DNA of 64,000 nucleotides from Poseidonia sp. GTDB lineage: Archaea; Thermoplasmatota; Poseidoniia; Poseidoniales; Poseidoniaceae. A model generated the notes under the pieces. That model was not told the DNA's origin. It ran no database searches and worked only from the letters and a program-made list of their open reading frames with translations. Of this stretch, positions 8,161 through 42,694 are shown one piece after another (position 1 is the stretch's first letter; every line of letters starts with the position of its first letter). The stretch is taken from the NCBI GenBank assembly GCA_030827365.1, contig JAUREO010000001.1:22312-86311 (forward strand), read 5' to 3'. Position numbers and translations under genes: made by a program.

Positions 8161-8272
8161 ACAACACACCCTACAATGTCTTGTGTGCAGACCTCCCTCA
8201 TCAAACATTTGCCTACAAATCTTTAGCAAAAGAACAGAAAGCATTCAAAAACCTCGTTCATTAGGTCGGCTT

Positions 8273-19426: not shown

Positions 19427-22174
19427 TTATTCTGTATCTTCTTCAGAAGATTCTTCGCCAGATGAATACATGTTCATCTCTTCATCCTCAGAACTACCGA
19501 CCATGCCGTACAAACCCAACACAAGAAGTGCTACACCTGCAATGTAGAAGAGCAGTGTGACGAAGTCGATGGGGTGGTCAAAGTTTGTCCAATATCCAAA
19601 GAATTCTTGATTGGTGTAAATTGCTGATTCAAGGCTATCGGCATCGCTGTCCGAAAGTTCTCCAGAGGTTTCGATGATGAACACAGGTTGTAAATCATCC
19701 ATGGTTGGAGGTGTAGCTTGGTTGCCCATCTCACGTGTGTCGAGGTAGAATGTCGACTTCGAGGTTCCACTGATGATGGCACCGCTCATGTCTTCTGCCT
19801 TCACAGTGACATCACTGCCGAAATACACCGGAAGTGCACCTGGAAGTGCATCAAGGAGTGTATCTGTTCCAAGGAGTTTGGCTTGAACTGAACGTGTGGT
19901 TGGGTCCATGGATGCTTGACAAGTTGTCACTGGGATGTCTTTGACGGTTTCAGAACCGTCTGTACAAACGAGGTCAACAACACCATATCCAGAGAGGTCA
20001 ACTTTGTCGCCATCACCTGTGATGAAGCCACCAGTTGCACCTTCGAGAGATTCGGGCGTAAGGATACCTAAAGTTCCTGTTGCCTTTTCCATGTCTCGCC
20101 ATGAGACATAGGGGCTACCGTCTTGCAAGAGCATTTCACCCTTATCACAATCTGCGTTTTCACCAGTACAAATGGTGTATTGAGTTCCATCACCATTGGC
20201 AATACCACCAGAACCGTAGTAGGTTGCATTGGTTTCAAGGCTCATCCAACCCGCACTCATGTCCATTGGGTTGCCTGTTTCAAGGTAAGCGTTGACTGGG
20301 TCATGCCATCCGAGAAGCCACTGGTTCATCTCCATAGTGATGTATGGTGTGGTGCCAAAGGAGTCCATCAAGAAGCCTGGAACAAAGTCAGCCATGATGG
20401 CATCCATGAGAATTAAACGGACCGCTCTAGCCGCATTGACATCAATTTGGTACAATGCCGCAACAGTTTCATCAGCCCAAGGCATTGGAGTATCTGGTTG
20501 CATGGTGAGGAAATTGATAGGCGGTGTTTGTCCAGCCATTTCACCGTAAATGAAGAGCGTAGCACCTGCCTGTGTGGTTAGACCGAGTGGGCCATAGAGG
20601 AGGTTTCCCGATTGTTCTGGCGTAAGTTCCACAGGTGCATTGCCGAGCATCATCCACAACCCACCGAGGTTGAGTGAGTACTCAAGGTATGTACCATCGA
20701 TTGGATTGACATTTCCAAATGAAGTGTTGACAAATTGAGACGCGGTCATTGTGCCAGTTCCACCGAGTAAGACGAGTGGAATGCTCGAAGCATCGGTGAG
20801 CCATCCACCAGCCCACATCATGACAGCACCATATTGTGCCTCATCGAGCATGTAGGTTGCCATGGCATCTGCAGGGGTCATGCCCATGAAAGCAGCGAGA
20901 CCGAAGTCATCACCATCTTCATTGGTGGCAAATAAGCCAAGGGGCATGTCAGTGCCTGTGCCGTTGAGCAGGAGATTCATCGCAATCATGTTGTCAATGG
21001 TGATGCCAAGCATGTTGTACAATCGTGCTGCAGCGTTGACGGACATACCGGTGGTGTCCATCATCCATGTTTCATCACCTGCTCCAGCCATGAGAGCACC
21101 GCCACCCACTGCAAAACACAAAGCCGCATCTCGAGCGAGCGTCGTATCAATATCTGGCATTGTTTCGGTTGCCATCGCCATAAAGCCCCAAACATTTGCA
21201 CGTTGCATCGAACCAACATTTGCAAATCCGTTGGCAGCGTCTGCCATGACTTCGTCGTACGTAGCAGTTGGATATGCCTCACAATGTCCAGCGAATGCAA
21301 GTGGACCTTGGGTGCTTAGAAGGTTGACAGAGTCGCCAGTTGGCATCATGGCACTGTTGAGTGCGTAAGATAGATTGCCAAATGCAGCACCTCCGAATAC
21401 AGTTGTGTTGTTTGAAGTTCTTGCTTGAATTTGCATTGTGGTAATATCTGTGTAAGAATAGGTCACATTCTCGTTGTTCATTCCTGACATATTCATCGCA
21501 GCGAAGTAGGCATCGAATTGCTGGTAGGCACCATTACCCCATCCTGCTGAGTAAGCTGCATCCATGGCTTCTGAACCATCGCTTGCCGCCATCACTGAAT
21601 CAATGGAAGCTGCGACCGCTTTTCCTGCTTGCATATTTTCAAGGTCGTTGGCCATGGCTTTTACGGAGAATCCGACCTTGGTAAGGTCCATGATTCCAGC
21701 CACAGCAGTACCTGTGGCACCAATGACTTGAGGCATGAAGGCAATGTTGAGGTTGGTGATTTGGGTTGTGCAATCATTTGCAGAATCAGCAGCACACTCG
21801 TAGGAAATGACTTCATTGTAGGTGAGTGTTCCAGCGGTTGAGTTGTGCTCAACGACAGTCTTTGTTGATGTGACGTCGTAGGTGAAAGGCCCAAGCATTT
21901 CATAGGTTGGGGCAACATCATCCGACATCATGGCGGCTAAATTCGTAATCGAGTAGGCGTAGAAATCTCTCGATTCGGTCGAACTTGCCCAGTCATCTTC
22001 GACATTGTCACAGTTACCGTCAGTGCAGGCATCGTCAAGAGGCTTTGTTGCTACATTCTCTTGAACTGCGTCCTCGACGGCACCCGTTGACAATGGGGCA
22101 AGAACTGCCATATTGACAACGAGTAATGCTATTCCGATAATTAATCCATTTTTACCTTGCAGGAAAGGGGTCAT
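19427..22174 (-). CDS. Two-TM (hairpin) surface protein with CD36/SR-B-family-like motifs and a large Met/Ala/Gly-rich insertion
   Basis: The N-terminal TM is LIIGIALLVVNMAVLAPL and the C-terminal TM is FVTLLFYIAGVALLVLGLYGMV, followed by an acidic tail. An ordered set of CD36-family-like motifs is present (GPFTYDV, TLTYNEVISYE, LLGWHDPV, YTICTGENADCDKGEMLL, LPVYFGS, FYLDTREMGN, PVFIIETSGEL). The family assignment is by eye only. Confidence 0.55.
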   Translation of the reverse strand: MTPFLQGKNGLIIGIALLVVNMAVLAPLSTGAVEDAVQENVATKPLDDACTDGNCDNVEDDWASSTESRDFYAYSITNLAAMMSDDVAPTYEMLGPFTYDVTSTKTVVEHNSTAGTLTYNEVISYECAADSANDCTTQITNLNIAFMPQVIGATGTAVAGIMDLTKVGFSVKAMANDLENMQAGKAVAASIDSVMAASDGSEAMDAAYSAGWGNGAYQQFDAYFAAMNMSGMNNENVTYSYTDITTMQIQARTSNNTTVFGGAAFGNLSYALNSAMMPTGDSVNLLSTQGPLAFAGHCEAYPTATYDEVMADAANGFANVGSMQRANVWGFMAMATETMPDIDTTLARDAALCFAVGGGALMAGAGDETWMMDTTGMSVNAAARLYNMLGITIDNMIAMNLLLNGTGTDMPLGLFATNEDGDDFGLAAFMGMTPADAMATYMLDEAQYGAVMMWAGGWLTDASSIPLVLLGGTGTMTASQFVNTSFGNVNPIDGTYLEYSLNLGGLWMMLGNAPVELTPEQSGNLLYGPLGLTTQAGATLFIYGEMAGQTPPINFLTMQPDTPMPWADETVAALYQIDVNAARAVRLILMDAIMADFVPGFLMDSFGTTPYITMEMNQWLLGWHDPVNAYLETGNPMDMSAGWMSLETNATYYGSGGIANGDGTQYTICTGENADCDKGEMLLQDGSPYVSWRDMEKATGTLGILTPESLEGATGGFITGDGDKVDLSGYGVVDLVCTDGSETVKDIPVTTCQASMDPTTRSVQAKLLGTDTLLDALPGALPVYFGSDVTVKAEDMSGAIISGTSKSTFYLDTREMGNQATPPTMDDLQPVFIIETSGELSDSDADSLESAIYTNQEFFGYWTNFDHPIDFVTLLFYIAGVALLVLGLYGMVGSSEDEEMNMYSSGEESSEEDTE

Positions 22175-22263: not shown

Positions 22264-25200
22264 TCACATGTTTCGTCGATATTGTCCACCGACTTGGAAG
22301 AGTGCTGTTGTGATTTGACCAAGGCTGGCAACTTTCACGGTCTCCATCAACTCTTCAAACACATTGCCACCACTTCGTGCTACGTGTTGGAGGCGCTTGA
22401 GTGCAACATCGGTTGCGTCTCCATGGGTGTTGTGCAAACCATTTGTTCGGTCAAGGCAGGCTTGTTTCTCCTCTGGTGTTGAGCGAGCAAGTTCCATATC
22501 AAATTCATCAGCGTTGGATTCATCAAATGCTTGTGCGTTCGGGTTTTGGAAGGTGTTCACACCAATGATTGGTAGCGTTCCATCGTGTTTGAGGTGTTCG
22601 TAATACATCGATTCATCTTGAATCTTTCCTCGTTGGTACATCGTTTCCATGGCACCGAGCACACCACCACGGCGGCTGATGGCTTCGAATTCCTCAAGCA
22701 CAGCCTGTTCGACAAGGTCAGTTAATTCCTCGACGATGAACGAACCTTGCATTGGATTTTCTGTCTTGGTCCAACCACTTTCTTTGTTGACAATGAGTTG
22801 AATGGCAAGGGCACGGCGAACGCTTCCTTCCGTTGGGGTGGTGATCGCTTCATCGTAGGCATTGGTGTGAAGGGAATTGGCATTGTCTTGAATGGCGAGC
22901 AGTGCTTGAAGCGTGGTTCGAATATCATTGAAATCAATCTCTTGAGCGTGCAAACTTCGGCCACTGGTTTGAATATGATACTTGAGTTTCTGGCTACGCT
23001 CGTCTGCACCGTACAACTCTCGCATGGCAACAGCCCAAATTCGACGTGCTACACGACCAATAACGGTGTATTCTGGGTCAAGACCGTTGCTGAAGAAGAA
23101 CGAAAGATTCGGTGCAAATCTGTTGATGTCCATGCCTCGACTTTTGTAATATTCGACATAGGTGAAGCCATTGGCAAGCGTAAAAGCGAGTTGAGTAATC
23201 GGGTTTGCCCCTGCTTCAGCGATGTGATAACCTGAAATCGAAACCGAATAGTGATTCCTCACATTGTGGTCGATGTAGTACTGCTGAACATCTCCCATGA
23301 GTTTGAGGGCAAACGGAGTGGAAAAAATGCAGGTGTTCTGTGCTTGGTCCTCCTTGAGAATGTCAGCCTGCACCGTGCCACGAACGGTGGAGAGAGCCAT
23401 TGCTTTGAGTTCCGCGTACGTTTCAGCATCGACCAATTCATCACCACGGCGACCAACAGTTCCAAGGCCGAACCCGTTGTGTCCATCGGGCAAATCTCCA
23501 CGATATGCGTCTGTTGGAATATCGAGCGGTGTACCCTGCTGGGCAAGATAACGCTCCACTTGTTGGTCGATTGCGGCGTTGAGGAAAAAGGCGAGAATGA
23601 TTGGAGCAGGCCCGTTGATGGTCATGCTCACAGAGGTGTTTGGGTCACACAGGTCGAAACCAGAATACAGCCGTTTTGCATCATCGCATGAGGCGATACT
23701 GACACCAGAATTGCCAACTTTGCCCCAAATATCAGGGCGCAACGCTGGGTCTCGGCCGTACAGGGTGACCGAATCGAAAGCTGTTGACAGCCTTGCGAAA
23801 TCTTGTCCTTTGGAGAGATAGTGGAATCGGCGATTGGTTCGCTCAGCCTCACCTTCACCAGCAAACATCCTCGCTGACAATTCATCAGTTCGCTTGAATG
23901 GAAAGACACCTGCTGTGTACGGGAAGTGGCCCGGGGCATTTTCTCGACTCATCCATGTATGCAATTCACCATCATCAGCAAAGGTTGGTAACGCTACTCT
24001 TGGGATATTGGAATGGGCGAGCGACTCGGTTGTGGTTTGAACGGTAAACGGTTTTCCACGGACGTGGTAGGTGTATTCTCCTGAAGCATACTGTTGAGCG
24101 AGGTCTCGAAATGCTTGCAACTCTTTTCTTGCATCTTCAAGTTGGGAAATGAGTTCGTCAATTTGCGCTTGCAAGTCGTCTGCAACACTTCCTTGCCCCC
24201 GTTGCCTTGCATGGTTGGCAGCGGTCTCCAAGTGCTGGCAAAGGCGTAATTTCTGAGCCATCTCCTCGTTGTGCTTGTGGTATTCTCGAACAGTTGCCGA
24301 AATTTCTGCAAGGTAATTGACACGCTCTGGGGGGATGACACCCTTTGCCCCACCAAATTCATCGGTCGGCGGGGAGGCTACAAAACCAACGAGGTCGGCG
24401 ACCTTCATCCAAAGTCGGTCAACACCAGCATCGGCGAATTGGCTTGCAATCGTAGCGACCACCGGCAGTTCTTCATCGGAAATGTCGAAAAGATTTCGAT
24501 TTCGTCGAACCTGTTTTCGAATGGCTCGGAGTGCATCTTCACTCCCTCGCTTCTCAAATTTGTTGAGCACAACAACATCAGCGACATCGAGCATCTCAAT
24601 TTTTTCAAGTTGGGTGTGGGCACCGAATTCAGCCGTCATGACGTACAGGGAATGGTCAGCAACCGAGGTGATGGCATCGCTACCTTGGCCAATGCCGCTC
24701 GTTTCACAAAAGATGAGGTCGAAACCTACCGCCTTTGCTACTTCGATGGCACGGTCGAGATGTTGGCTGATTTCAGAACCCGATCCTCGGGACGCGAGAG
24801 AGCGCATGTAGAGGTCGTTGTTTGAAAGCGAATTCATTCGAATTCGGTCACCGAGCAATGCCCCACCAGTTCGCTTTCTCGTTGGGTCAACGCACAAGAG
24901 ACAGACTCGTTTTCCTGGGTTGTCACGCTGAATTCGGAGCATCAATTCATCGAGAAGGCTTGATTTTCCTGCCCCTCCTGTTCCCGTAAATCCGATGACA
25001 GGAACATCGTTTGTCGAAGAGCGACAACGCTCCAACACCTCTCGAAACGAAGCATCATCCATGGATTCGCTTAGAGTGAGAAGAAGTCCAACCTTTGCAG
25101 TGTCCATCGCGTTTACAGGACCATCGAGGCTTGCCATTCGGTCTTCACTGATGAGGTCAACTTCCGATGCTTGGCCCATCAAGTGGTGAATCATGCCCAT

Positions 25201-25614
25201 GAGCCCCATGGTTCGTCCATCATCAGGCGAGTAAATTTTTGATATTCCAGCTTGGTGAAGTGTTTTGATTTCTGGAGGGGTAATCGTCCCACCTCCACCT
25301 CCAAAGATGCGAATATGGCTGCACCCTGCTTCGTCGAGGAGTTCTCGGATGTAGGTGAAGTATTCCACGTGTCCGCCTTGATACGATGTCAGTGCTACAG
25401 CGTGGGCATCCTCTTGAATGGCGCAATCGACCACATCCTTTGCTGAACGGTCATGCCCAAGATGGATGACTTCCGCACCACTTGATTGAATGAGTCGTCG
25501 CATGACATTGATGGCTGCATCGTGACCATCGAACAATGAAGCAGCGGTTATGACACGCACAGGACCTGTGGATGTCGAAAAGGTGACATCATCACCCTGC
25601 TCATCATCGCTCAT
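22264..25614 (-). CDS. icmF: Fused isobutyryl-CoA mutase IcmF (B12-binding domain + MeaB-like GTPase + acyl-CoA mutase catalytic domain)
   Basis: The N-terminal B12 domain has the DGHD motif (SLFDGHDAAINVM). The central P-loop is GFTGTGGAGKSSL, with NKFE as the G4-like motif. The C-terminal ~600 aa is a mutase TIM-barrel domain. The first ATG downstream of the divergent promoter region is at 25614. Confidence 0.85.
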   Translation of the reverse strand: MSDDEQGDDVTFSTSTGPVRVITAASLFDGHDAAINVMRRLIQSSGAEVIHLGHDRSAKDVVDCAIQEDAHAVALTSYQGGHVEYFTYIRELLDEAGCSHIRIFGGGGGTITPPEIKTLHQAGISKIYSPDDGRTMGLMGMIHHLMGQASEVDLISEDRMASLDGPVNAMDTAKVGLLLTLSESMDDASFREVLERCRSSTNDVPVIGFTGTGGAGKSSLLDELMLRIQRDNPGKRVCLLCVDPTRKRTGGALLGDRIRMNSLSNNDLYMRSLASRGSGSEISQHLDRAIEVAKAVGFDLIFCETSGIGQGSDAITSVADHSLYVMTAEFGAHTQLEKIEMLDVADVVVLNKFEKRGSEDALRAIRKQVRRNRNLFDISDEELPVVATIASQFADAGVDRLWMKVADLVGFVASPPTDEFGGAKGVIPPERVNYLAEISATVREYHKHNEEMAQKLRLCQHLETAANHARQRGQGSVADDLQAQIDELISQLEDARKELQAFRDLAQQYASGEYTYHVRGKPFTVQTTTESLAHSNIPRVALPTFADDGELHTWMSRENAPGHFPYTAGVFPFKRTDELSARMFAGEGEAERTNRRFHYLSKGQDFARLSTAFDSVTLYGRDPALRPDIWGKVGNSGVSIASCDDAKRLYSGFDLCDPNTSVSMTINGPAPIILAFFLNAAIDQQVERYLAQQGTPLDIPTDAYRGDLPDGHNGFGLGTVGRRGDELVDAETYAELKAMALSTVRGTVQADILKEDQAQNTCIFSTPFALKLMGDVQQYYIDHNVRNHYSVSISGYHIAEAGANPITQLAFTLANGFTYVEYYKSRGMDINRFAPNLSFFFSNGLDPEYTVIGRVARRIWAVAMRELYGADERSQKLKYHIQTSGRSLHAQEIDFNDIRTTLQALLAIQDNANSLHTNAYDEAITTPTEGSVRRALAIQLIVNKESGWTKTENPMQGSFIVEELTDLVEQAVLEEFEAISRRGGVLGAMETMYQRGKIQDESMYYEHLKHDGTLPIIGVNTFQNPNAQAFDESNADEFDMELARSTPEEKQACLDRTNGLHNTHGDATDVALKRLQHVARSGGNVFEELMETVKVASLGQITTALFQVGGQYRRNM

Positions 25615-25752
25615 GCCCTTCCCATTATGTAATGGTTCATGAAATACACCTTTTCTTCCAATACACAATGTTTGCAATCATGGAGGAAACCCAATCCCAA
25701 TTTCTTCACGTTTAACAACTTGATACCGCGCCGACAAGATTGGGGGATTCCA

Positions 25753-27429
25753 ATGGTTCGTGAACTCATCCGCATCGAGGGTGTCGACAGAAGTTTTGGG
25801 CCAGTCGATGTACTCAAGGACATCACCTTCAATGTCAACGATGGCGACCGAATCGGTATTGTGGGCCACAACGGTGCTGGAAAAACCACATTGCTCAACA
25901 CCATTAGCGAACAAGCACAAGATGTTGGTGATGTTGAACTTGCCCCTGGTATTCGCCTTGCTTACCTCACACAAATTCGTGATTTAGAATCAACAAAAAC
26001 CATCGAGGAAGAATTGAGTCGAAAAGGTCGCCAATTCCAAGAACTCGAGGAAGAAATCGCCTCCATCGAAGCACAAATGGTCGACCCTGCATTTTACGAG
26101 GGGAATTGGGAGCCTGTGATGGAACGTTATACTGAATTGCAACAAACACTTGCATCGAGCGGTGGAGGAAACGTCGCTGGTATCGCTAAAGGCATTCTTG
26201 AACGCCTTGGACTTGACAAGCATCCTATGGAAATGCCTGTCGCACAACTCTCTGGCGGTGAAAAGGCAAAACTTGCTCTTGCTCGCCAACTTGTGGGACT
26301 TGCTGGCATTGACGTGATCTTTCTCGACGAACCTACAAATCACCTTGATATTCGAACAACCGAATGGCTTGAAGCCTTTCTTCGAGACTTCAAAGGTGCC
26401 CAACTCATCGTTTCCCACGACCGTTATTTCCTTGACCAAGTGTGCACGAGAATCATTGAAATTGACAATTTAAGGGCTTGGCCATGGAAGGGCAACTACT
26501 CCCAATTCATAGCACAAAAGGCAGCCAGTGAGTCCTCGCTCAATGACCAAATCAAGACCACAGAAAAGAAGATTCAAGCGACACTCGGGGCTCTCCAACA
26601 AATGAAGAGGGCAAATAAATACGACAAATCGATATCTGCAAAACATAAAATGGTCGAGCGACTTCAATTAGAACTCAAGGCACTCAAATCAAGAATTCCT
26701 AAGAAACGCAAACCCCTCATTATCAAACTCGAAGCCATCGAGAAAGGAAGCATGGATGTGCTCAACATTGAGGGCGGAACCAAAACCTTTGATGGCCTAA
26801 AACGTCCAATCCTCAACAATCAACATCTCGAAGTCCGAAAAGGTGACAGAATTGGCATTGTGGGCGGAAACGGCCAAGGTAAAACCACATTGCTCAAACT
26901 CATCAACGGTGAAGAAAAACTCACTTCCGGAAAACTCAACCTTGCACCAGGAGCCGTCATTGGTTATTTTCATCAAGACCACGGAACACTTGACTTCTCC
27001 CTCAACCCCATCGAACAAATTCAAAAGTTAAGGCCGGACTTTCAGTATGGCGATATTCGTGCTGCCCTCGGCCGATTTCAGTTCAAAAATGATCAAGTTG
27101 AAACAAAACTTTCCCAATTGTCTGGGGGCGAACGTGCCCGAGTTGCCCTGCTCAAATTGCTCCTTGAGGAGAATAACTTACTGCTCATGGACGAGCCTAC
27201 AAACCATTTGGACATGGAATCCAAAGAAACACTCGAAGAAGCCCTCATCAATTACGAAGGATCACTCGTCACGGTCTCTCACGACAGATGGTTCCTCGAC
27301 CAAGTCGTCAATCGCATTTGGGAACTTGAAAACGGTGTCATTACCGTGTACTACGGCAATTATACGGATTATATTCGAGCCAAAAAAGGCCTACCGCCTC
27401 TTGGTGAGGATGAAATTTCAGAAGTTTAA
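25753..27429 (+). CDS. ABC-F family ATPase (two NBDs, no TM domain; EttA/Uup/YheS-like)
   Basis: Walker A appears twice (GHNGAGKTT, GGNGQGKTT) and the signature twice (LSGGEKAKLALA, LSGGERARVALL). A charged inter-domain linker of about 80 aa joins them. There are no hydrophobic segments. Confidence 0.85.
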   Translation: MVRELIRIEGVDRSFGPVDVLKDITFNVNDGDRIGIVGHNGAGKTTLLNTISEQAQDVGDVELAPGIRLAYLTQIRDLESTKTIEEELSRKGRQFQELEEEIASIEAQMVDPAFYEGNWEPVMERYTELQQTLASSGGGNVAGIAKGILERLGLDKHPMEMPVAQLSGGEKAKLALARQLVGLAGIDVIFLDEPTNHLDIRTTEWLEAFLRDFKGAQLIVSHDRYFLDQVCTRIIEIDNLRAWPWKGNYSQFIAQKAASESSLNDQIKTTEKKIQATLGALQQMKRANKYDKSISAKHKMVERLQLELKALKSRIPKKRKPLIIKLEAIEKGSMDVLNIEGGTKTFDGLKRPILNNQHLEVRKGDRIGIVGGNGQGKTTLLKLINGEEKLTSGKLNLAPGAVIGYFHQDHGTLDFSLNPIEQIQKLRPDFQYGDIRAALGRFQFKNDQVETKLSQLSGGERARVALLKLLLEENNLLLMDEPTNHLDMESKETLEEALINYEGSLVTVSHDRWFLDQVVNRIWELENGVITVYYGNYTDYIRAKKGLPPLGEDEISEV

Positions 27430-28001
27430 GCCCATTCTTTGAGGAGTTCAAATTTTGTAGCATTCGTTGGTGTACTCTTCGTTTTCCATAACTCCATTCG
27501 AGGGTTAGGGGCCGGAGTTTGCAACTGTCCATCGGTGGAAGTCTCATCCCATGTTGTTTTTTCATCCGCAACTGGCCAGTGGAGTACGATGCCATACTCG
27601 ATACCTGAAAGCATGGATGCACTGTGGATTGGAGCGTTGTGAAGATATCCGAACAATTGCAATCTTGCTTTGTCTTTGGCGGCTTTAGTTGGATTGGAAT
27701 GCTTAACTTCGATGATAATATCCTTTGTGAATTTATTTTTACCACCTGGTTGTAAAACAAAATCTGCACGTAAATCTTTGAGTGGAAACGATTTGTACAG
27801 AACTTCGATTGTGACTTCTGAATGATATTTTAGTTTGGCTCGATTGAGCTCGTAGGCAAAGCATTGTTGGTAAATTTTTTCGATGGAACTTTCTGCTGCA
27901 AAATAAAAGCACGTTTTATTGACATCGCATGCCATCTTGAAAATCAAATCACAAATCGCTTCCAAGTCCGTATCCATCGTATCTCTCCCAATCTTGCTCA
28001 T
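27426..28001 (-). CDS. GxxExxY-family protein (PD-(D/E)XK nuclease-like fold) with C-terminal extension
   Basis: Matches ESSIEKIYQQCFAYEL, LRADFVL, IIIEVK, RLQLFGYL and GIVLHW, in the order typical of GxxExxY proteins. Its ATG overlaps the stop of the upstream acyl-CoA synthetase (ATGA). Confidence 0.6.
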   Translation of the reverse strand: MSKIGRDTMDTDLEAICDLIFKMACDVNKTCFYFAAESSIEKIYQQCFAYELNRAKLKYHSEVTIEVLYKSFPLKDLRADFVLQPGGKNKFTKDIIIEVKHSNPTKAAKDKARLQLFGYLHNAPIHSASMLSGIEYGIVLHWPVADEKTTWDETSTDGQLQTPAPNPRMELWKTKSTPTNATKFELLKEWA

Positions 28002-29908
28002 TGAATTGTTTGAATTTCTTCGTCAAATTTGGACAAGAGATTTCGTAGTTTGACCTTCATGGATGGTGTCATCATGTCGTTGTCCGTTGTCCATTCTTCG
28101 TGGTCAAGAATAATGGTTTTTGCAACTTCATATCCTTTCCAATCTGGAGCCTTCATGTTGTTGGTTTGCAATTCACCAAGCAACCAATTTCGTACTTCAG
28201 GTTGCTTGCACATGGCCTCGTCCGATGCATCGACCGAAACACCTGCAGACGAAGCGGCACTTCGCAGAGCCTCAAGGTTCGGATGGACAATGAGGAAGGT
28301 GTTCTTCATGTTTCGACCATCGAGCACTGCTTGCTCAACAAGGGGCGAAAGTTTGAGGTTCTCTTCGAGTGATGAGGGTGAAACATACTTGCCGTTTTCT
28401 AACTTGAATTGAGACTTTACACGGCCCGTGATGGAGAGGTAACCGTCCTTGGTCAACTTTCCAAGGTCACCGGTTCTAAAGGTGCCTGGTTCAACGATGA
28501 CCTCTTTGGTTGCTTCTTCGTTGTTCCAGTAACCCATCATGACGTTTGGTCCAGTGACGACGATTTCGCCTTCATCTGGTCGGTCTGGGTCATCCCAAGC
28601 CGAGGTGTCAATGGTCACTTTCACACCATTTGCGACTCTACCAACGGTGTTGAGTTTACTTGTACCAGGGCCCATCCAACCATTTGCTGAAACGAGAGGA
28701 GATGTTTCTGTGAGCCCGTAGCCTTCGTAGCAGTTGAATCCAACCATTTGGATAAAGGAAGCAACATCTGGAGAGAGAGCTGCTGCTCCAGACATACAGA
28801 ATCGGATGTTTCCACCGAAACGAGCACGGACTTTCTTCCACACGAGTTTGTCCCACAACTTGTCACCGAATCCCTTTGGTGGAACGGCGTCACATTCGAC
28901 ACCAGCATTAGCAATTCGCTTTGCAGCGGATTTCTTTGCGTTGTTGATGAACTTCTTCTTGAGGCCGGTTGCTGCTTCAAACTGACTGTTGACTCTGTCG
29001 TAGAATTTGTTCCAAACTCTTGGGACGGCAAGTAACACAGCGGGTTTAATCTCTTGGCATTCATCTGCGATCTTTGTCAAATCTGAGATAAGGTTGATAT
29101 GAACACCACAACGAATCATCCAATGCAGATCAAATGTTGAACCAAATGAGTGAGCCCAGGGTAAGAAGGCTGCGTTTTTGTCACCGATGTAAATTTTGAA
29201 GGCGGATTGAACACAAAGAATGTTTGAAAGTGTGTTCCAATTTGACAACATCACACCCTTCGGATGACCTGTGGTACCGGAGGTGTAAATCAAGGTGTTG
29301 AGTGCAAATGGGTCATCAGCGATTTCGAACATGTCAGCATCACGGCCAGCGTTGACGAAATCTTTCCATGCATGGACTGAAATGGCTTCGGGAGGAATTT
29401 CGTTTGCTTCTTCATCACCAAGAAGAATGATACCACACCTTGGCCAACCGGATGCCTCTTTGGGCATGTGTGCAACAAGTTTGTCGAGTACTGAGGTGTT
29501 CTGAACCGCAAGAATAGCGGGCGTCGAATCACCAAGAATGTAAGCCCATTCTTCGCCGTGTTGGTGCGTATACATCGCAGTATAAGCAGCACCAATGCCG
29601 TTTGCTCCGTAGGAGAGGGCAGCCCACTCGACCGAGTTATCGAGGATGATGGCAACTCTGTCGCCGGCTTGAACACCAACGGCTGCTAACTGCTTGCCAA
29701 CGGCGGTGGCCAGATCGCCAAATTCATTGTAGGAGAGATGTATTCTTGGCATACCCGGACTGGGGATGTATCCAAAACAGTGGTCGTCGCCAAACATACT
29801 GACGCTCGTTGCCAACATTTGGTACAAAGTTCGTGGGTCGTCACCTTCCGGTTTCTCCCATTGACGGTCATCCGGTTGTCTTTTCCATGCCATTTTCAGT
29901 TCTGTCAT
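27998..29908 (-). CDS. Long-chain fatty acid-CoA ligase (AMP-forming)
   Basis: The AMP-binding motif is LIYTSGTTGHPKGVMLSN. GYGLTETS and TGDLGKLTKDGYLSITGRVK also match. The start is ambiguous: GTG at 29944 overlapping the SMUG stop, or ATG at 29908 or 29893. Confidence 0.85.
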   Translation of the reverse strand: MTELKMAWKRQPDDRQWEKPEGDDPRTLYQMLATSVSMFGDDHCFGYIPSPGMPRIHLSYNEFGDLATAVGKQLAAVGVQAGDRVAIILDNSVEWAALSYGANGIGAAYTAMYTHQHGEEWAYILGDSTPAILAVQNTSVLDKLVAHMPKEASGWPRCGIILLGDEEANEIPPEAISVHAWKDFVNAGRDADMFEIADDPFALNTLIYTSGTTGHPKGVMLSNWNTLSNILCVQSAFKIYIGDKNAAFLPWAHSFGSTFDLHWMIRCGVHINLISDLTKIADECQEIKPAVLLAVPRVWNKFYDRVNSQFEAATGLKKKFINNAKKSAAKRIANAGVECDAVPPKGFGDKLWDKLVWKKVRARFGGNIRFCMSGAAALSPDVASFIQMVGFNCYEGYGLTETSPLVSANGWMGPGTSKLNTVGRVANGVKVTIDTSAWDDPDRPDEGEIVVTGPNVMMGYWNNEEATKEVIVEPGTFRTGDLGKLTKDGYLSITGRVKSQFKLENGKYVSPSSLEENLKLSPLVEQAVLDGRNMKNTFLIVHPNLEALRSAASSAGVSVDASDEAMCKQPEVRNWLLGELQTNNMKAPDWKGYEVAKTIILDHEEWTTDNDMMTPSMKVKLRNLLSKFDEEIQTIQ

Positions 29909-29940
29909 GAACACCTGATGTAGTCGGCAACATTTGAATT

Positions 29941-30717
29941 TCACCCCGAGTTTTTATGAAGGGTTTCGAGAACATTTCTTTTCCAGTCCTCGCCGTTGTT
30001 TTGATTTGCAAGCGGACTTGCTGGGCTAGGGTGCCAAACAGATTGAATCAAAATAGAGGTGCCATCGTCTTTTTTACCCGTCCCTTTTTTTGCTTTGAAG
30101 ACCAACGATGCTCTTCGTTCAGCATATTTTCCTACCCCGATGATTCTTTCGATGCCCAAAATCTCGACGAGGTTCTTGAGGTAAAGGTCACAAGTCTGCA
30201 TGAGAGTTTCGAGCAATGATTTGGGTAACTGGTCCGGCGTTATGTTTTGGCCACGTTCACCAAGAAGCAAAAGTGGACAGTGATTGACGACAAAGACATG
30301 TGAGAAACATGCTTCTGGTGAGCCGTACGTCTCTTTCATAAGATTCCATATTCTTGTTCCTGAGGCCTCTTGACGTTTCAAACTTAATCCTTCGATTTGG
30401 CGTTTTGGATGAGCGTTTTTTGGCGTTTGGAGTTGGACCGGTTTGATGTCGAGAAACTCCCGAACGCACTGCGTCGCACCAAATGGAACGCCCGTCTGTG
30501 CCATGCCAAACGGGCCGGGGTTCATGCCGAGCAAGATGGTCTTCGCTCCAAGACCAGCCCATTTCGTGAGATATTGTTCATGAAGTGGCCAAGCATAATC
30601 CAAAGGATTGGTTGCATGGGCGACAAGTGCATGCTGTTCAAGTGTACTCTGAAGCGCAGAGCATTCATCTCGAAAACGCTTCGTTCGTTCGACCAGAAGG
30701 TCTTGAACACTGCCCAT
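29941..30717 (-). CDS. SMUG1-type (family 3) uracil-DNA glycosylase
   Basis: The motif GMNPGPFGMAQTGVPFG is nearly identical to the SMUG1 active-site motif. The second motif is HPSPASPLAN. Confidence 0.8.
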   Translation of the reverse strand: MGSVQDLLVERTKRFRDECSALQSTLEQHALVAHATNPLDYAWPLHEQYLTKWAGLGAKTILLGMNPGPFGMAQTGVPFGATQCVREFLDIKPVQLQTPKNAHPKRQIEGLSLKRQEASGTRIWNLMKETYGSPEACFSHVFVVNHCPLLLLGERGQNITPDQLPKSLLETLMQTCDLYLKNLVEILGIERIIGVGKYAERRASLVFKAKKGTGKKDDGTSILIQSVWHPSPASPLANQNNGEDWKRNVLETLHKNSG

Positions 30718-30751: not shown

Positions 30752-33406
30752 TCACTCGAATTTTCGGCGAGATGAGATGACCACACATGCACCAATAATT
30801 GATGCAAGTGTAGCGAACATACCGATTGAAGGAAGGCCAGAAATGGATTCCTCCTCTTCATCATCACCAGATTCTTCAACTTCATCGACATCACATGCAG
30901 TTCCGATACCATCATCGTCTGCATCGAGTTGATCGGCGTTTGCTACATTTGGACAGTTGTCCAAAACATCAGCAATTCCATCATTATCCGAATCTGTTTC
31001 CTCTTCCTCTTGAGTCACACAAAGGCCACTATTACATGAAGCGCCATAGGGGCAAGCATTGCCGCAAGCGCCACAATTTGTAATGTCTGTTGAAATGTCG
31101 ACACAATTGCCATTGCAATCGATTTGATCATAGGGACACAACAAAATTTCACATCCCTCTTGGTCAACAACTTCACCTGAGGCCGTTTCCGGGCATGAAT
31201 CGACAATATCATCCACACCATCCCCATCATCATCGGCATCGATTACATCGCACTCTCCATCGCCATCGAAATCAGTTGGCACATCGTTCGCATCTGTAGC
31301 ATTGGAACCGCAATCCCATTCTTCCCAATCGGAGTACGAATCATTGTCATCATCACTGTCGATAACATCGCATGTACCATCCATGTCGAAGTCAGTTGGT
31401 ACGCTGTTGTTATCCGAGGCATTGGTGTAACAGTAGTACTCATCTTGATCCGTCCATCCATCGCCATCGGTATCGGTATTCGTGTCGATGACCCCAAAGT
31501 TGACGCTTCGCGAGCCGACATAATACCAAGAATTATTGGATTCTAAGATAATCCAAGTTTCAATGTAGAAGTTGTAACTGCCTTCTTGCAGAGGACCAGA
31601 GGCTAATTGACTGAAATTGAAATACAATTCATCCCAATCGTTTTGAGCGGTATAACTTGAATTTCCATAGTCTATGATGGTTCCATTAGTTTCTGAGCTG
31701 TAGATTGAGATCCACCATTCATTAACGATGGTTGCATTCAACACATTGCAGTAATTTGCAATGTAAGCATACACTTCATCACCGACATAATACACATCAC
31801 CGTTGTACAATCCGCTAAGGGACAAGTATGCGTAGCTTGCATCATAACCACAACCCATGCCACTATTGTTTTGAGCGACCACAGAGAAGTTTGCGTACTC
31901 TTCGCCGAGGTTGTACGTCGTTCCTTGCCACACCATCGTAGCACTTGTTGAGAACGAGTAGTTCCCGACACCAAGATTGGTGAAATTGAGGGGGTGGTAA
32001 TCAGAAGTGTTGTATGCGGTCCAATTCCAAGAACCATAATCAATGTTTGTTGAGCCAGAGTTCAATTCCCAATTGATGATCATTTGGGCTCCGAGCACAT
32101 TACAATAGGTTGACATGTATGGGTATGGCATGTAAGTTCCAAGGATGTACTCGTCACCTTCGTAAAGTCCACTCATGTAGAACATAGTATAACTTGCATC
32201 GTATCCGCAACCCGAAGGTGCTGTGACATTGAAATGATACGTGTAGGAGTCGAGCAAAACTTGCTGAGTGCTGCTATCAATGTAGGACATTGAGGTCGAT
32301 ACGGTATAATTTCCGATACTCAAGTTACTCATGTAGAAGTAGTGATAATCGTACAGGTTGTACGCAGTCCAACTCCATGATCCATTGTCAAGCTCCAATA
32401 ACTCTGAATTATTGTTGATCCACTGATAGATTGTGTAATTGACAATCATGGTTTGATTGAGCATGTTACAGTAGGTGTACACGGTAGCATTGAGCGAATC
32501 ACCTTCGAAGAGGGGATAGTAATTGTTCCATGCTGAGATGTACGCATAACTCTCTTCATAACCGCAACCTGAGTTGTTACTTGAAGAAGATGAAACAGTG
32601 AATGAGTCATAATCGTAGTCGAGATATGTCCATCCTTGATTTGTGGTGTTCCAGGTGTACAAAGTAGCATACAGTGTGTACGAACCTGCGCTGATGTTGG
32701 TGTAGTTGATGTCGTAGTAATATGTTGAGTATGATGCATTCCATTGGAAAGACCCTGTGGTGAGATTCATGCTGTTGTTGTTGTCCATAATGTACCAGTC
32801 AACTCGCATGGTGTTTCCAAGAAGGGCACAATATGTGTCGATGTATGCCTCATAGGTGTCGCCAGCAGTGTATGATGTGTAGTAACTGTTGGGGTCGAGA
32901 TAGGCATAACTCGAATTATAACCACATCCTGAACTGCTGCTGTTTGATACGGTAAAGTTGTATGAATAGCCATCCAGCCAAGTGAACGTTTGCGAGTTAT
33001 CGTAGTAATACAATCCAAGATTCACAGTATATGTGCCGTAAACTAGATTTTGGAGGTAATGATAATGTGTTTGCGTTATTGAATACGCCGTCCAATTCCA
33101 AGCGCCTGATTGAACGTAGGTACCGTTAGGTGCAGTCACGTTGTATATGACATACATGGTCTGATTGAGCATATTACAATTTGAGTAGACCGATCCGTTG
33201 AATGAGTCCCCGACGTAGTACGGCCCGTTGTTGTACCAACCCGAAATATAAGCGTAGGATTCGTTGTATCCACATCCTGTTGAATTATTTCCTGAATTTG
33301 CTTCTGTTGTCGATTCTTCCAACATGATTGTTGTTGAATTCATCATACTGGGAGCCATTGAACCCAAAACAAAAACAAGAGTTATCACTAGTGTACGGCC
33401 GTTCAT
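30752..33406 (-). CDS. Secreted, C-terminally anchored Tyr/Asn-rich surface (glyco)protein: 5 x ~118-aa novel repeats + TSP3-like repeats + Cys-rich module
   Basis: The signal-like N-terminus is MNGRTLVITLVFVLGSMAPS. Five GCGY...YCN.L...W(N/S)WTAY repeats are dense in NxS/T sequons. They are followed by DTDGDGWTDQDE and DSDNDGIADVLDNCPNVANADQLDADDDGIGTACD, then CNGNC...CGACGNAC. The C-terminal TM is followed by RRKFE. Confidence 0.85.
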   Translation of the reverse strand: MNGRTLVITLVFVLGSMAPSMMNSTTIMLEESTTEANSGNNSTGCGYNESYAYISGWYNNGPYYVGDSFNGSVYSNCNMLNQTMYVIYNVTAPNGTYVQSGAWNWTAYSITQTHYHYLQNLVYGTYTVNLGLYYYDNSQTFTWLDGYSYNFTVSNSSSSGCGYNSSYAYLDPNSYYTSYTAGDTYEAYIDTYCALLGNTMRVDWYIMDNNNSMNLTTGSFQWNASYSTYYYDINYTNISAGSYTLYATLYTWNTTNQGWTYLDYDYDSFTVSSSSSNNSGCGYEESYAYISAWNNYYPLFEGDSLNATVYTYCNMLNQTMIVNYTIYQWINNNSELLELDNGSWSWTAYNLYDYHYFYMSNLSIGNYTVSTSMSYIDSSTQQVLLDSYTYHFNVTAPSGCGYDASYTMFYMSGLYEGDEYILGTYMPYPYMSTYCNVLGAQMIINWELNSGSTNIDYGSWNWTAYNTSDYHPLNFTNLGVGNYSFSTSATMVWQGTTYNLGEEYANFSVVAQNNSGMGCGYDASYAYLSLSGLYNGDVYYVGDEVYAYIANYCNVLNATIVNEWWISIYSSETNGTIIDYGNSSYTAQNDWDELYFNFSQLASGPLQEGSYNFYIETWIILESNNSWYYVGSRSVNFGVIDTNTDTDGDGWTDQDEYYCYTNASDNNSVPTDFDMDGTCDVIDSDDDNDSYSDWEEWDCGSNATDANDVPTDFDGDGECDVIDADDDGDGVDDIVDSCPETASGEVVDQEGCEILLCPYDQIDCNGNCVDISTDITNCGACGNACPYGASCNSGLCVTQEEEETDSDNDGIADVLDNCPNVANADQLDADDDGIGTACDVDEVEESGDDEEEESISGLPSIGMFATLASIIGACVVISSRRKFE
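31485..33277 (-). repeat. Five tandem in-frame ~118-aa coding repeats (GCGY repeat)
   Basis: Each unit begins GCGY(N/E/D)xSY and contains a second Cys in YCN(M/V)L(N/G). It ends with an aromatic-rich segment and F(T/N/S)V. Confidence 0.8.
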
Positions 33407-35246: not shown

Positions 35247-36635
35247 TCAATCCTTCTTCTCTTTTCGAGGGCGATGTCTTTTTTTCTTTCCGTCTTGCTC
35301 TTCTTCAAGCATGGCTCGAAGTTCTCTCGACGATTTATTGGATTTCTTCCCGGTTTGACCTGCGACATCGATGCGAATTTTTCGACCATCGATTTCAGTG
35401 TTCGTGATTTGGCCAACCAATTCATCTGCGTTGGTTTCGGATGTTGTTGAGACGAAAGCAAATCCTTTCGGTTTGTTGTCAGGACCAGTCACAATGTTGA
35501 TGTGTGTTATTTCGGCTTTGTCTTTAAACAATGAACGAATTTGCTCTTCAGTAATTGAAAATGGTAAATTCCCGACATAGAATTTAACCTCAGGTATTGA
35601 TTTTGGTTTGTCTTTCTTACTTTTGTCATCGGCTAAATTCACACCAAGAATCCGACCTTGCACCTTTTTGGTTTTCATGGCTTGAATGGCTGCTTGAGCC
35701 ATATCTTTGTGTTCATAAGTGACAAAACCGAATCCGCGGCTGTTGCCAGATTCGTCGGTCATGACGATGCAATCATCCATTTCACCATATTCACCAAAAA
35801 TTTCACGAAGCCCATTGGTATCGATGTCTCTTGGAATTCCTCCAACGAAAAGTCGGCAGTCTGGGTCTGCTTGTTGCTTTGCTCCACCACCGCCTGAAGA
35901 ACCGCCTTCGAAAGAAAAATATTCGATTTCTCGACCATCATTTCGAACATCGGCTGCAATTCGAGTTGCACGAGCAGAAGGACCGATGTTTCTAAATTTC
36001 TCAGTTGCTTCACTCCAGCGTTTTCCTTTCCTTGAAACTTCATCGATGTCTTCTCGACCAGTGCCCCAACCCACACCAAATTGGTCGGATACTGCACGGA
36101 AATCTTTGGTGTTGCAGACGGTGCAAGCAACATTCCAATCGTCATCAAGTTTAATCTTCATGTCACCGCCACATGCACCGCAAATGGTGCTGAGAACACC
36201 GAGCTCCGAAGAGGAGCGAAAGTCAATTCTCAACACAGGTTTGGTTTCAATGACCACACCGCGGCAAATATCACGGATATTGAGTGCATCTCGAGTTTGG
36301 TGGAGATAACGATCTGTAATATTGGTGACGTGGAATTGAGCAATTAAGTTCTCTGCATCGATTGAACCTCGCTTGCCTTCGATGACAAGTAACGTGGCTT
36401 CGCCATTTTTTTCATTGAGGCGACTAATTTCACAAAGGACTTTATCGCCAATTTCCGGTACAGGAGGTTGTTTATTTGCAAGGATACTAATGACCCCGTC
36501 GAGGTGTTGAACTTCCCCAAAAATGCTTGCCCTCAGCACACCCTCGTGGGATATAACTCCGTGACCAGCCTCAAATTCACCGTCATTGCACAACTTCGTT
36601 CCGGGGGTGACGATGCTCGCCGTCATAATTCTCAT
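35247..36635 (-). CDS. Exosome cap subunit Csl4 fused to two RRM (RNP-type) RNA-binding domains and a Lys-rich tail
   Basis: The Csl4 part has VTPGTKL..GHGV, an S1-like core EIGDKVLCEISR...FHVTNI..IRDICRGVVIE, and the zinc ribbon CGACGG...CTVCN. A GGSSGGGG linker follows. RRM1 has LFVGGI and RGFGFVTY; RRM2 has FYVGNL and KGFAFVST. The start is ambiguous (GTG 36683, ATG 36635 or 36626). Confidence 0.8.
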   Translation of the reverse strand: MRIMTASIVTPGTKLCNDGEFEAGHGVISHEGVLRASIFGEVQHLDGVISILANKQPPVPEIGDKVLCEISRLNEKNGEATLLVIEGKRGSIDAENLIAQFHVTNITDRYLHQTRDALNIRDICRGVVIETKPVLRIDFRSSSELGVLSTICGACGGDMKIKLDDDWNVACTVCNTKDFRAVSDQFGVGWGTGREDIDEVSRKGKRWSEATEKFRNIGPSARATRIAADVRNDGREIEYFSFEGGSSGGGGAKQQADPDCRLFVGGIPRDIDTNGLREIFGEYGEMDDCIVMTDESGNSRGFGFVTYEHKDMAQAAIQAMKTKKVQGRILGVNLADDKSKKDKPKSIPEVKFYVGNLPFSITEEQIRSLFKDKAEITHINIVTGPDNKPKGFAFVSTTSETNADELVGQITNTEIDGRKIRIDVAGQTGKKSNKSSRELRAMLEEEQDGKKKRHRPRKEKKD

Positions 36636-36735
36636 TCCTTGGACATGGCCATCGACAGGTCGCACGCCGCTAAACAACCCCACATGTCATTCCTTTTCAA
36701 ACCCCTTCATTCAATCACAACCGGGCATTTCACAT

Positions 36736-37562: not shown

Positions 37563-38654
37563 TCAACCTATTGATGTCATGTCGACCAAAATAGACCAAG
37601 TATCAAGTTGATTGGCAATCGCACGTTCGTTCAATTCCTCCCAGCGTGGGTCATCCATAAACTCTGAAACATCCGCCCCGGCGTCCATTTTTTCTTGAAT
37701 AAATGCTCTGAATTCAATTTCAACCTCTGACTGAGGTTCCGCTTCCTCTTCAGGCGCTTCTTCGATAGCAACTTCTTCGACATCGGGTTCCTCGGAATGA
37801 ACCGATTCTTCGGGAGCCGAGGTTTCTATGTCATCGGTGTATTGATTATTGGGCAGTGGCACATCCTCGACTTCAACGGCAGTTTCTGAAGGAGGTAAAG
37901 GAACATGTTCAACCTCTCCAACTTCGACCTCATGTTCCTCAGGTTGAGAATCGATGAATTTAGGTTCTACGACCTCTTCAACAACTGGTTGCTCGATGGT
38001 AATATTATCAACTGGTTGCTCAACAACCTGTGGTGCAGGTCGTTGAAGTCGCCCAACTCCAAGCACTTCGGCTTGTTGTCGTGCAAATTCTGCTGCTTGT
38101 CTTCGTGGAAGACTTATGAAAGCTTTCCCGGGTAAGGAACTTGTTGGAAATGGTAGAAAGTATTCGTTGATGGGTGCGATATCGGGATGCGAAAAACACA
38201 TGATTTGTTCTACTTCAAAGGCCCTTTGTGCTGGTGAATCAATCGAAAATGGAAGTGGGCGAACTACGATACTGCTTCGTTTCCATCCCTCGTTTTTGAT
38301 AAGGTGTTGGACCCATGGACCCAAATCGGTCGTGGCAAGGTCAACGAATTGAAAAGAGGCATCTCGTGGATTCAAACCTTGCTCCTCGAGAAGTTGTGCT
38401 TGCTCACGTGGGCGGTGGAAGATAGATACAATCGGTTGTCCATGTTCGACGAGGTCTCCGTGCAATTCCATCATTTTACGGTCCTTTCTCGGGCACAACA
38501 TAAGAATCCTCATGCGGGTGGCGTTCACATCCCAAATTTCCCCCCATCGTTGTTCAGCCTCTACGAACAGTTGTCCCATGGTAGCATCAGGAATCATCGC
38601 AGTTATGCCCATCGTCTCACCTGTATGTTTGACATTGTTTTCCTCTTTAGCCAT
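37563..38654 (-). CDS. Hypothetical protein with acidic low-complexity central region
   Basis: Long ORF in the same orientation as its neighbours. The track start (38663) is TTG and the first ATG is at 38654 (MAKEENN). The E/V/P-rich segment is VVEEVVEPKF...EEAPEEEAEPQSE. No family recognised. Confidence 0.6.
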   Translation of the reverse strand: MAKEENNVKHTGETMGITAMIPDATMGQLFVEAEQRWGEIWDVNATRMRILMLCPRKDRKMMELHGDLVEHGQPIVSIFHRPREQAQLLEEQGLNPRDASFQFVDLATTDLGPWVQHLIKNEGWKRSSIVVRPLPFSIDSPAQRAFEVEQIMCFSHPDIAPINEYFLPFPTSSLPGKAFISLPRRQAAEFARQQAEVLGVGRLQRPAPQVVEQPVDNITIEQPVVEEVVEPKFIDSQPEEHEVEVGEVEHVPLPPSETAVEVEDVPLPNNQYTDDIETSAPEESVHSEEPDVEEVAIEEAPEEEAEPQSEVEIEFRAFIQEKMDAGADVSEFMDDPRWEELNERAIANQLDTWSILVDMTSIG

Positions 38655-38666
38655 GAGGGTCAAAAA

Positions 38667-42627: not shown

Positions 42628-42694
42628 ACGACATGGGTGACCTTCGAGCCTCTTTTTCTTTCTGTTAAAGCATAAGTAGAACCGACGCACATCA

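Follow-up and report, generated by a model that had tools for sequence, protein, structure and literature searches.

A CD36/class-B scavenger receptor family protein with a large methionine-rich apex in Poseidoniales archaea

A gene of the marine archaeon Poseidonia sp. (order Poseidoniales, also known as Marine Group II, MGII) encodes what is almost certainly a bona fide member of the CD36 or class-B scavenger receptor (SR-B) family. The gene lies on the minus strand, at positions 19427..22174, of a 64,000-nucleotide stretch of contig JAUREO010000001.1 (assembly GCA_030827365.1, positions 22,312 to 86,311), which is referred to here as the window, and it consists of a single open reading frame (ORF) of 915 codons with an ATG start and a stop codon at 19427-19429. 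Its product carries one transmembrane segment (TM) at each end and, between the two, a single large ectodomain which is colinear with that of CD36 from end to end and has the predicted CD36 fold, interrupted at the apex by a helical domain of about 460 residues that is rich in methionine.

The new element is the occurrence of a genuine SR-B in another domain of life, together with its distinctive apex; the domain itself is already auto-annotated. The initial annotation of this DNA, made from the sequence alone, described the family as essentially eukaryotic. This is true of the literature, as the dedicated survey of SR-Bs covers Eukarya only and infers an SR-B in the last common ancestor of eukaryotes (Boohar et al., 2023, PMC10715195), and in the library searched no paper was found that links CD36 with Poseidoniales, MGII, Thalassarchaeaceae or archaea in the sense of family membership. 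It does not hold for the databases, which already carry precomputed archaeal matches to the Pfam CD36 model PF01130 and, at NCBI, some members named 'CD36 family protein'.

Family membership, predicted fold and membrane topology

The complete protein matches PF01130 with E = 6.2e-16 and 58.4 bits, against a gathering cut-off of 26.5. The N-terminal 240 residues, scanned alone, account for 47 bits at profile positions 42-134, and the middle part and the C-terminal third give no match when each is scanned alone against Pfam. A construct from which the apical insertion was deleted reaches 64.5 bits over profile positions 51-236 of 463. Likewise through the N-terminal region, a profile built from 35 archaeal homologues retrieves LIMP-2 chains from the PDB (E ~0.002, LIMP-2 residues 38-117). 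A single-sequence phmmer search of the PDB returned nothing relevant, and NCBIfam holds no model matching the 915-residue protein.

The relationship was followed along the rest of the ectodomain by profile-profile alignment. The human CD36 sequence used is identical to PDB entry 5LGD over residues 1-472, LIMP-2 was likewise taken from the PDB, and the other eukaryotic SR-B sequences come from the supplement of the survey (PMC10715195); a search for full-length eukaryotic proteins seeded with an 80-residue LIMP-2 segment yielded exon-sized fragments only. In an alignment of 49 archaeal sequences the insertion columns (residues 151-606) were deleted, because the insertion derailed hhalign on the full-length alignment. 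The resulting profile aligns with CD36 and LIMP-2 at a probability of 96.9% (E = 1.7e-10, 350 aligned columns), colinear from TM1 (CD36 residue 15) to just before TM2 (CD36 residue 439). Its N-terminal half alone reaches a probability of 94.5%, and its C-terminal half alone, with P = 0.0018, is colinear with CD36 residues 169-438. Against 60 column-shuffled templates, the whole construct scored 83.7 (shuffled 15.5 +/- 2.1, z = 32), the N-terminal half 54.2 (12.8 +/- 2.3, z = 18) and the C-terminal half alone 31.5 (14.6 +/- 2.5 with a maximum of 21.2, z = 6.9). The homology thus extends colinearly over the whole ectodomain, including its C-terminal half and the motifs M1 and M2, whose published consensus strings (Table S5 of PMC10715195) agree with DW..RDFYAYSITN...AP and LGPFTYDVT...GT of the archaeal protein. 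All nine motif pairs that the initial annotation had read by eye as colinear with CD36 and LIMP-2 fall into register in this alignment.

The predicted structure points in the same direction. An AlphaFold2 model computed from the 35-sequence alignment (mean predicted local distance difference test score, pLDDT, 76.3; predicted template modelling score 0.65) contains long helices at residues 7-40 and 868-892, beta-strands within 54-142 and 611-839, and exclusively helices within 146-606. When this model was compared with the PDB by Foldseek, ranks 1 to 13 were all LIMP-2/SCARB2/CD36 entries (probability 1.00, E from 1.3e-6 to 2.8e-3), with 296-350 aligned columns of chains of about 390 residues; the asymmetric antiparallel beta-barrel of the family is thus present in the predicted structure, and by analogy it would enclose an internal tunnel. 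The next match after the CD36 family is LmcA of M. smegmatis (7N3V; E = 0.047, probability 0.96), and a search of a viral structure library gave nothing at E < 1. In profile, fold and colinearity alike, the family assignment of the initial annotation has therefore withstood scrutiny, and so has its description of an ORF with one TM at each end.

Hydropathy analysis (Kyte-Doolittle, 19-residue windows, threshold >1.5) finds hydrophobic segments above threshold at residues 7-34 and 867-896, and one further borderline segment, 584-603, which has two Asp within it and belongs to the helical insertion. Together with the terminal AlphaFold2 helices, this leaves TM candidates only at residues ~10-30 (TM1, 22085..22147; this and the following features are all on the minus strand) and ~868-893 (TM2, 19496..19573). 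A short N-terminal tail with Lys8 precedes TM1. The N-terminal half of the barrel ectodomain (residues 41-145, 21740..22054) is delimited by the Pfam, PDB-profile, hhalign and AlphaFold2 results and carries the motifs DW..S, FYAYSITN, GPFTYD, GTLTYNE and NLNIAF. Beyond the insertion, the C-terminal half (residues 607-860, 19595..20356), delimited by hhalign, Foldseek and AlphaFold2, carries LLGWHDP, YTICTGE...SW, LPVYFGS, FYLDTR and PVFIIETSGEL. A short, variable and acidic tail (residues 894-915, 19430..19495; pLDDT <50), presumed to be cytoplasmic, was delimited from the alignment of C-termini.

Lys or Arg precedes TM1 in all homologues and follows TM2 in many (for example as QKKDE or RK), which fits a hairpin topology with both termini inside the cell. 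TM1 has a hydrophobic core of about 20 residues and is followed by a conserved LSTGxVEDAV; it is probably an uncleaved signal-anchor, because its helix runs on into the conserved residues T30, V33, A36 and V37. The region between the two TMs bears extracellular signatures, namely co-varying Cys pairs, an invariant N-x-T sequon and an extreme depletion of Lys and Arg. The ten Cys form five closely spaced pairs (50/55 and 127/135 in the N-terminal barrel half, 298/353 in the insertion, 669/676 and 737/752 in the C-terminal half), the members of which are gained and lost together across the 49 sequences, and the sequon N649-A-T is present in 100% of them.

The methionine-rich apex

The insertion (residues 146-606, 20357..21739, minus strand) replaces CD36 residues ~146-168, which form the apex helices alpha4 and alpha5, and its measured limits agree closely with the 20350-21730 first estimated from the sequence. 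It starts directly after NLNIAF, which is motif M4 of Boohar et al. (PMC10715195), and it ends just before ...NQWLLGWHDP, a region taken to correspond to motif M6. In place of the canonical three-helix bundle of the apex (alpha4, alpha5, alpha7), the archaeal protein thus has a multi-helix domain of about 460 residues. This departure does not disqualify it from the family, because many protist SR-Bs have expanded and divergent apices at the same site (PMC10715195). In eukaryotes, all SR-Bs with an ectodomain of more than 500 residues carry lineage-specific helical expansions at alpha4/alpha5, and ectodomains of up to 2,294 residues are known (PMC10715195). With its insertion at this M4-M6 hot spot, the archaeal protein follows a known pattern of the family, and the initial annotation was correct in locating the insertion at the ligand-binding apex.

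The composition of the insertion is unusual. It contains 8.7% Met, 15% Ala, 10.8% Gly and 2% Lys plus Arg, and is also rich in Thr; the corresponding values for the remainder of the window's ORFs are 2.3% Met, 6.8% Ala, 8.0% Gly and 8.2% Lys plus Arg. Across 35 homologues, Met makes up 4.7-9.2% of the insertion but 2-4.5% of the flanking parts of the same proteins, and about 14 Met columns within the insertion are at least 80% conserved; since the enrichment recurs in this way, it is a property of the family. In SRP54 and calmodulin, helical surfaces rich in Met provide hydrophobic binding sites that are malleable. The domain is modelled with pLDDT values mostly of 75-90, lower over residues 220-290. 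Within the archaeal family its first half (146-340) is the most variable region of the protein, and its distal half (341-606) is conserved to the same degree as the barrel. The insertion has no Pfam match when scanned alone, no significant fold match in the PDB within the Foldseek search of the whole model, and no hhalign match to CD36 or to the expansions of Micromonas/Bathycoccus and Bigelowiella. A 168-residue antisense ORF (20862-21368, plus strand), rich in Ala, Pro and Ser, lies within the region coding for the insertion; most likely it is no gene but a side effect of the Met/Ala/Gly-rich coding strand.

Distribution, origin and gene neighbourhood

The family is widespread in the order. 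A word-indexed search returned 476 clusters, and the 120 of them that were listed span 844-968 residues, are 50-96% identical and all carry a precomputed PF01130 annotation; the named ones are Poseidoniales, Poseidoniaceae, Poseidonia or 'Euryarchaeota' metagenome-assembled genomes (MAGs). An exhaustive search of 1.84 billion representatives gave 303 hits at E <= 1e-3. Among the 150 of these that were listed, the near-full-length matches are all ~730-970 residues long and no insertion-less family member occurs. The most divergent full-length clusters belong to Thalassarchaeaceae/Thalassarchaeum (MGIIb), and one of these has been auto-named 'CD36 family protein' by NCBI. Among the GTDB species representatives, 184 loci encode a relative, and 77 of the 80 of these that were retrieved carry Poseidoniales or generic euryarchaeotal MAG labels, the 2.06-Mb MG-II chromosome CM001443.1 being one of them. 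This ortholog survey, which the initial annotation had proposed, places the gene in both families of the order, Poseidoniaceae and Thalassarchaeaceae, and the common ancestor of Poseidoniales thus probably possessed it. A bacterial origin was rejected for three loci filed under MAGs of Rhodobiaceae, Salipiger bermudensis and Yoonia sp. (CALDQY010000126.1, CAXQWT010000019.1 and CAXRJJ010000082.1), which are mis-binned archaeal contigs, because their flanking genes are 80-100% identical to those of Poseidoniales/Thermoplasmatota contigs. The deep-sea MAG Guaymas_28 has a family member on each of two contigs (PSPR01000041.1 and PSPR01000017.1), 47% and 44% identical to the query, which indicates either paralogy or a mixed bin.

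Regarding the origin of the gene, the archaeal profile was compared with eight eukaryotic SR-Bs, and no nearest eukaryotic clade is evident among them: Bigelowiella scores 30 bits, LIMP-2 25, Monosiga 20, CD36 19, Cafeteria 19, Bathycoccus 15, Micromonas 14.5 and Pleurobrachia 12. An algal donor (Micromonas, Bathycoccus or Bigelowiella), which the split domain architecture and the Cys pairs had suggested, was rejected, as these algae score 14.5-30 bits and thus no better than animal or stramenopile SR-Bs; moreover, their insertions do not align with the archaeal one (P ~0.3), and the Cys pairs are out of register and absent in the Thalassarchaeaceae representatives. Since the family is widespread among eukaryotes and otherwise confined, so far, to a single order of archaea, the parsimonious reading would be that a eukaryote passed the gene to an archaeon in an ancient transfer. 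With an archaeal clade that spans a whole order and is homologous over its full length, the question arises whether SR-Bs were transferred between domains or have a prokaryotic root.

An IcmF-type fused mutase (22264-25677, minus strand) is located 89 nt upstream of the gene in the window, and an AMP-binding gene of the acyl-CoA synthetase type (27998-29944, minus strand) at a distance of 5.8 kb. The gene is convergent with a photolyase-related gene and is embedded, as an uninterrupted ORF, among archaeal genes (fibrillarin, Nop5, Fpg, IcmF). The initial annotation had identified the two metabolic neighbours correctly and had drawn from them an argument for a lipid-related role, which does not stand. 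Adjacency to icmF is found in 3 of 80 related loci, all three at least 78% identical; some 17 of the 80 share only a downstream housekeeping block (metallophosphoesterase-LysE-Fpg-fibrillarin-Nop5), and other subclades have different housekeeping neighbours. The neighbourhood therefore gives no functional evidence, and an inference of a lipid role from it was rejected. A scan for sigma-70 promoters and terminators was set aside as not informative for an archaeon.

Several other genes of the window deserve mention. The IcmF-type ORF as listed has a TTG start and overlaps the divergent ABC-F ATPase ORF (25639-27429, plus strand) by 39 nt; the true start of one of the two probably lies further in, and an in-frame Met is found about 21 codons downstream in the IcmF ORF. 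In an 884-residue ORF (30752-33406, minus strand) with 0.7% Lys plus Arg, a Cys-rich segment of the Stig1 type accompanies thrombospondin type-3 (TSP_3) repeats (PF02412, E = 1e-8). That animal CD36 is itself a receptor for thrombospondin, though by way of type-1 repeats, makes this neighbour a curiosity. The archaeal TSP_3 protein is probably one of the 'thrombospondin' adhesion proteins that are widespread in Poseidoniales (PMC6461757). Two giant subtilases of 1869 and 1613 residues (2635-8244, minus strand, and 48902-53743, plus strand; Peptidase_S8 with CARDB/Big domains) and a CARDB/PKD protein of 1226 residues (57529-61209, minus strand), all poor in Lys and Arg, fit the extracellular protein-degrading lifestyle of MGII. 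In a 478-residue ORF (35247-36683, minus strand), two RRM_1 domains (E = 4.6e-36) are joined to the N-terminal region of exosome Rrp4 (ECR1_N, E = 1.4e-9); as RRM domains are uncommon in archaea, this Rrp4-like/RRM fusion may be noteworthy. Two further ORFs, of 725 (40513-42690, minus strand) and 366 residues (37563-38663, minus strand), matched no Pfam family at the thresholds used.

Proposed function and comparison with known systems

Taken as a whole, the observations are best explained, in a reading that we narrowly favor, by an SR-B whose Met-rich dome captures lipids and passes them on. The protein would be anchored by a TM at each end, with short cytoplasmic tails and a single extracellular, asymmetric CD36 beta-barrel crowned by the dome of about 460 residues. 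Hydrophobic or amphipathic compounds, for instance free fatty acids and other lipids that algal detritus and particles release, may be captured by the dome; they would then pass down the barrel, reach the cell membrane at its outer face and from there enter the cell and the fatty-acid beta-oxidation pathway. We infer the ligand class, the direction of transfer and the retention of TM1, and a role in the transfer of lipids or other hydrophobic ligands seems to us about evenly balanced to somewhat probable. Capture of exogenous fatty acids or lipids is favored because proteins of the CD36 family pass lipids through a cavity spanning the ectodomain (PMC12225734; PMC8972800) and because the genes and transcripts of MGII point to the degradation of fatty acids: all Poseidoniales genera encode fatty-acid degradation (PMC6461757; PMC6336850), the most highly transcribed genes of both families include one for beta-oxidation (PMC9723583), and lipids and proteins are regarded as the nutrients of MGII (PMC6461757; PMC9723583; PMC6336850).

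Several points weigh against this reading. Pfam by itself spans only profile positions ~42-236 of 463, for the C-terminal barrel half the support is confined to the profile-profile alignment and the predicted fold, and the Foldseek TM-scores are moderate (0.34-0.43, normalized to the target). TM1 could instead be a cleaved signal peptide. No lipid-related neighbor is conserved among the 80 related loci. Lastly, Lys164 of CD36 and the ligand-binding apex helices of the animal proteins fall within the replaced region, and ligand recognition must therefore differ from that of animal CD36.

Among the other explanations, an artefact, that is, a eukaryotic contaminant, a mis-assembled gene or a chance or compositional similarity, has a negligible probability. 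The family is otherwise described in eukaryotes only and three related contigs were filed under bacterial MAGs, but the intact ORF among archaeal genes, the 184 genome loci including the MG-II chromosome, the archaeal flanks of the three mis-binned contigs and the shuffle controls, which exclude a compositional match, effectively refute it. It is also conceivable, if unlikely, that a protein of the same family acts mainly as a surface receptor for recognition or adhesion, its apex binding particles, algal surfaces, polymers or partner proteins, with no transport of lipids. Thrombospondin, collagen and pathogens are all ligands of CD36, and the SR-Bs of animals act in pattern recognition with multiple ligands, which are sensed by the apex (PMC10715195). 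For MGII, an association with particles has been inferred, and genes for adhesion (thrombospondin-type, flotillin) are widespread among them (PMC6461757). The variability of the first half of the insertion is as expected of a recognition surface, but the distal half is conserved and not diversifying, and conservation between the two archaeal families is highest in the barrel, which in CD36, SR-BI and LIMP-2 is the transport part. The Met-rich and Lys/Arg-poor make-up, moreover, suggests a surface for hydrophobic ligands over one that binds proteins or glycans, and the gene for the TSP_3-repeat surface protein, although only 8.6 kb away, lies outside the conserved synteny of the CD36-like gene.

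Two further roles appear improbable. A scavenger of carotenoids or retinoids might supply the chromophore of proteorhodopsin, as Drosophila ninaD/santa-maria and mammalian SR-B1 do in their systems, given that carotenoids from which visual chromophore is synthesized are taken up by way of class-B scavenger receptors (PMC12225734) and that most MGII subclades have proteorhodopsin without an annotated beta-carotene 15,15'-monooxygenase (PMC6336850). The gene is, however, also present in MAGs from deep or aphotic sites (Guaymas, Saanich Inlet), where proteorhodopsin is often lost (PMC6461757; a general pattern and not one read from those MAGs), Thalassarchaeaceae transcribe crtI/crtD, so that the pathway is partly endogenous (PMC9723583), and no carotenoid gene lies nearby in the window. 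We likewise assign little probability to an outward-directed factor of lipid handling or envelope biogenesis that moves the cell's own lipids or lipid-linked precursors, as proposed for LmcA and for lysosomal lipid export by LIMP-2. The rank of LmcA as the next structural match speaks for it, as do the CD36-like barrel with cavities and the implication of LmcA in lipoglycan biosynthesis and lipid trafficking (PMC8972800; PMC9678360), the order-wide occurrence of the gene among housekeeping genes and the unusual mixed membranes predicted for MGII (PMC6461757). Yet the archaeal protein is unrelated in sequence to DUF3068/PorA, its gene has no conserved neighbours for envelope biosynthesis, and the elaborate outward apex is better suited to capture from outside.

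No fatty-acid uptake protein is named in the MGII papers considered here (PMC6461757; PMC9723583; PMC6336850), and for these uncultured, globally abundant heterotrophs the gene is a specific and testable candidate. A more far-reaching version, possible but doubtful, would have a class-B scavenger receptor, gained by ancient inter-domain transfer or descended from a prokaryotic root, fixed in the ancestor of the order and serving the most abundant planktonic archaea of the ocean as their principal entry point for hydrophobic nutrients from outside; these nutrients would be fatty acids or lipids, possibly also carotenoids or retinal for proteorhodopsin, and the dome would act as a malleable, promiscuous catcher of hydrophobic ligands. 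Were this version true, the missing lipid-uptake step of MGII heterotrophy would be identified and a prokaryotic model for SR-B biology would become available. In any case, a Met-rich apex of 460 residues on a CD36 barrel is a natural experiment in the rebuilding of SR-B ligand capture, and it is a further, independent instance of expansion at the apical hot spot.

With human CD36 (SCARB3), LIMP-2 (SCARB2) and SR-BI (SCARB1) (Pfam PF01130; PDB 5LGD, 4F7B and 4Q4B), the archaeal protein has in common the two terminal TMs with their short tails and one large ectodomain between them. It is homologous to CD36 in colinear order over residues 15-439 of the latter and shares the asymmetric beta-barrel, as predicted, and the motifs correspond as follows (archaeal/human): FYAYSITN/FWIFDVQN, GPFTYD/GPYTYR, NLNIAF/LNLAV, LLGWHDP/LLWGYRDP, LPVYFGS/RPVYISL, FYLDTR/TYLDIE and PVFIIETSGEL/PILWLNETGTI. 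Identity to the human family is only ~13-18%, however, and the three-helix apex of CD36 (~146-168, including the Lys164 region) contrasts with the Met-rich helical domain. The host is an archaeon, and the metazoan disulfides (C243-C311, C272-C333 and C313-C322 of CD36) are lacking: none of the archaeal Cys aligns with a CD36 cysteine, and five other Cys pairs take their place. In the eukaryotic survey, the metazoan pattern is described as specific to Metazoa even among eukaryotes (PMC10715195).

Protist SR-Bs with apex expansions, known from Phytophthora, Tetrahymena, Dictyostelium (LmpA), Micromonas/Bathycoccus and Bigelowiella (PMC10715195), resemble the archaeal protein in their split 'TM-CD36-CD36-TM' Pfam architecture, in the helical expansion at the M4-M6 site and in an enlarged ectodomain, which in protists ranges from 600 to >2000 residues. 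The archaeal insertion differs in having no detectable homology to the expansions of Micromonas/Bathycoccus and Bigelowiella (hhalign P ~0.3); its Met enrichment was measured in the archaeal family alone.

Actinobacterial LmcA (MSMEG_0317; DUF3068/PorA; PDB 7N3V) is likewise prokaryotic, membrane-associated and extracytoplasmic, with an elongated CD36-like barrel that has cavities and is devoid of a helical apex (PMC8972800), and the DUF3068 family is restricted to actinobacteria (PMC9678360). The archaeal protein does not belong to that family: its structural match to 7N3V is weak, and Pfam at E <= 10 returns CD36 only. In contrast to LmcA, it matches the CD36 sequence family itself and bears a very large apex. 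The bacterial FadL, an outer-membrane channel for long-chain fatty acids built as a 14-stranded barrel, is unrelated in fold and envelope and is a functional analogue only, in that the archaeal protein would take its place in the same physiological step, the capture of exogenous long-chain fatty acids and their delivery to the membrane ahead of an acyl-CoA synthetase.

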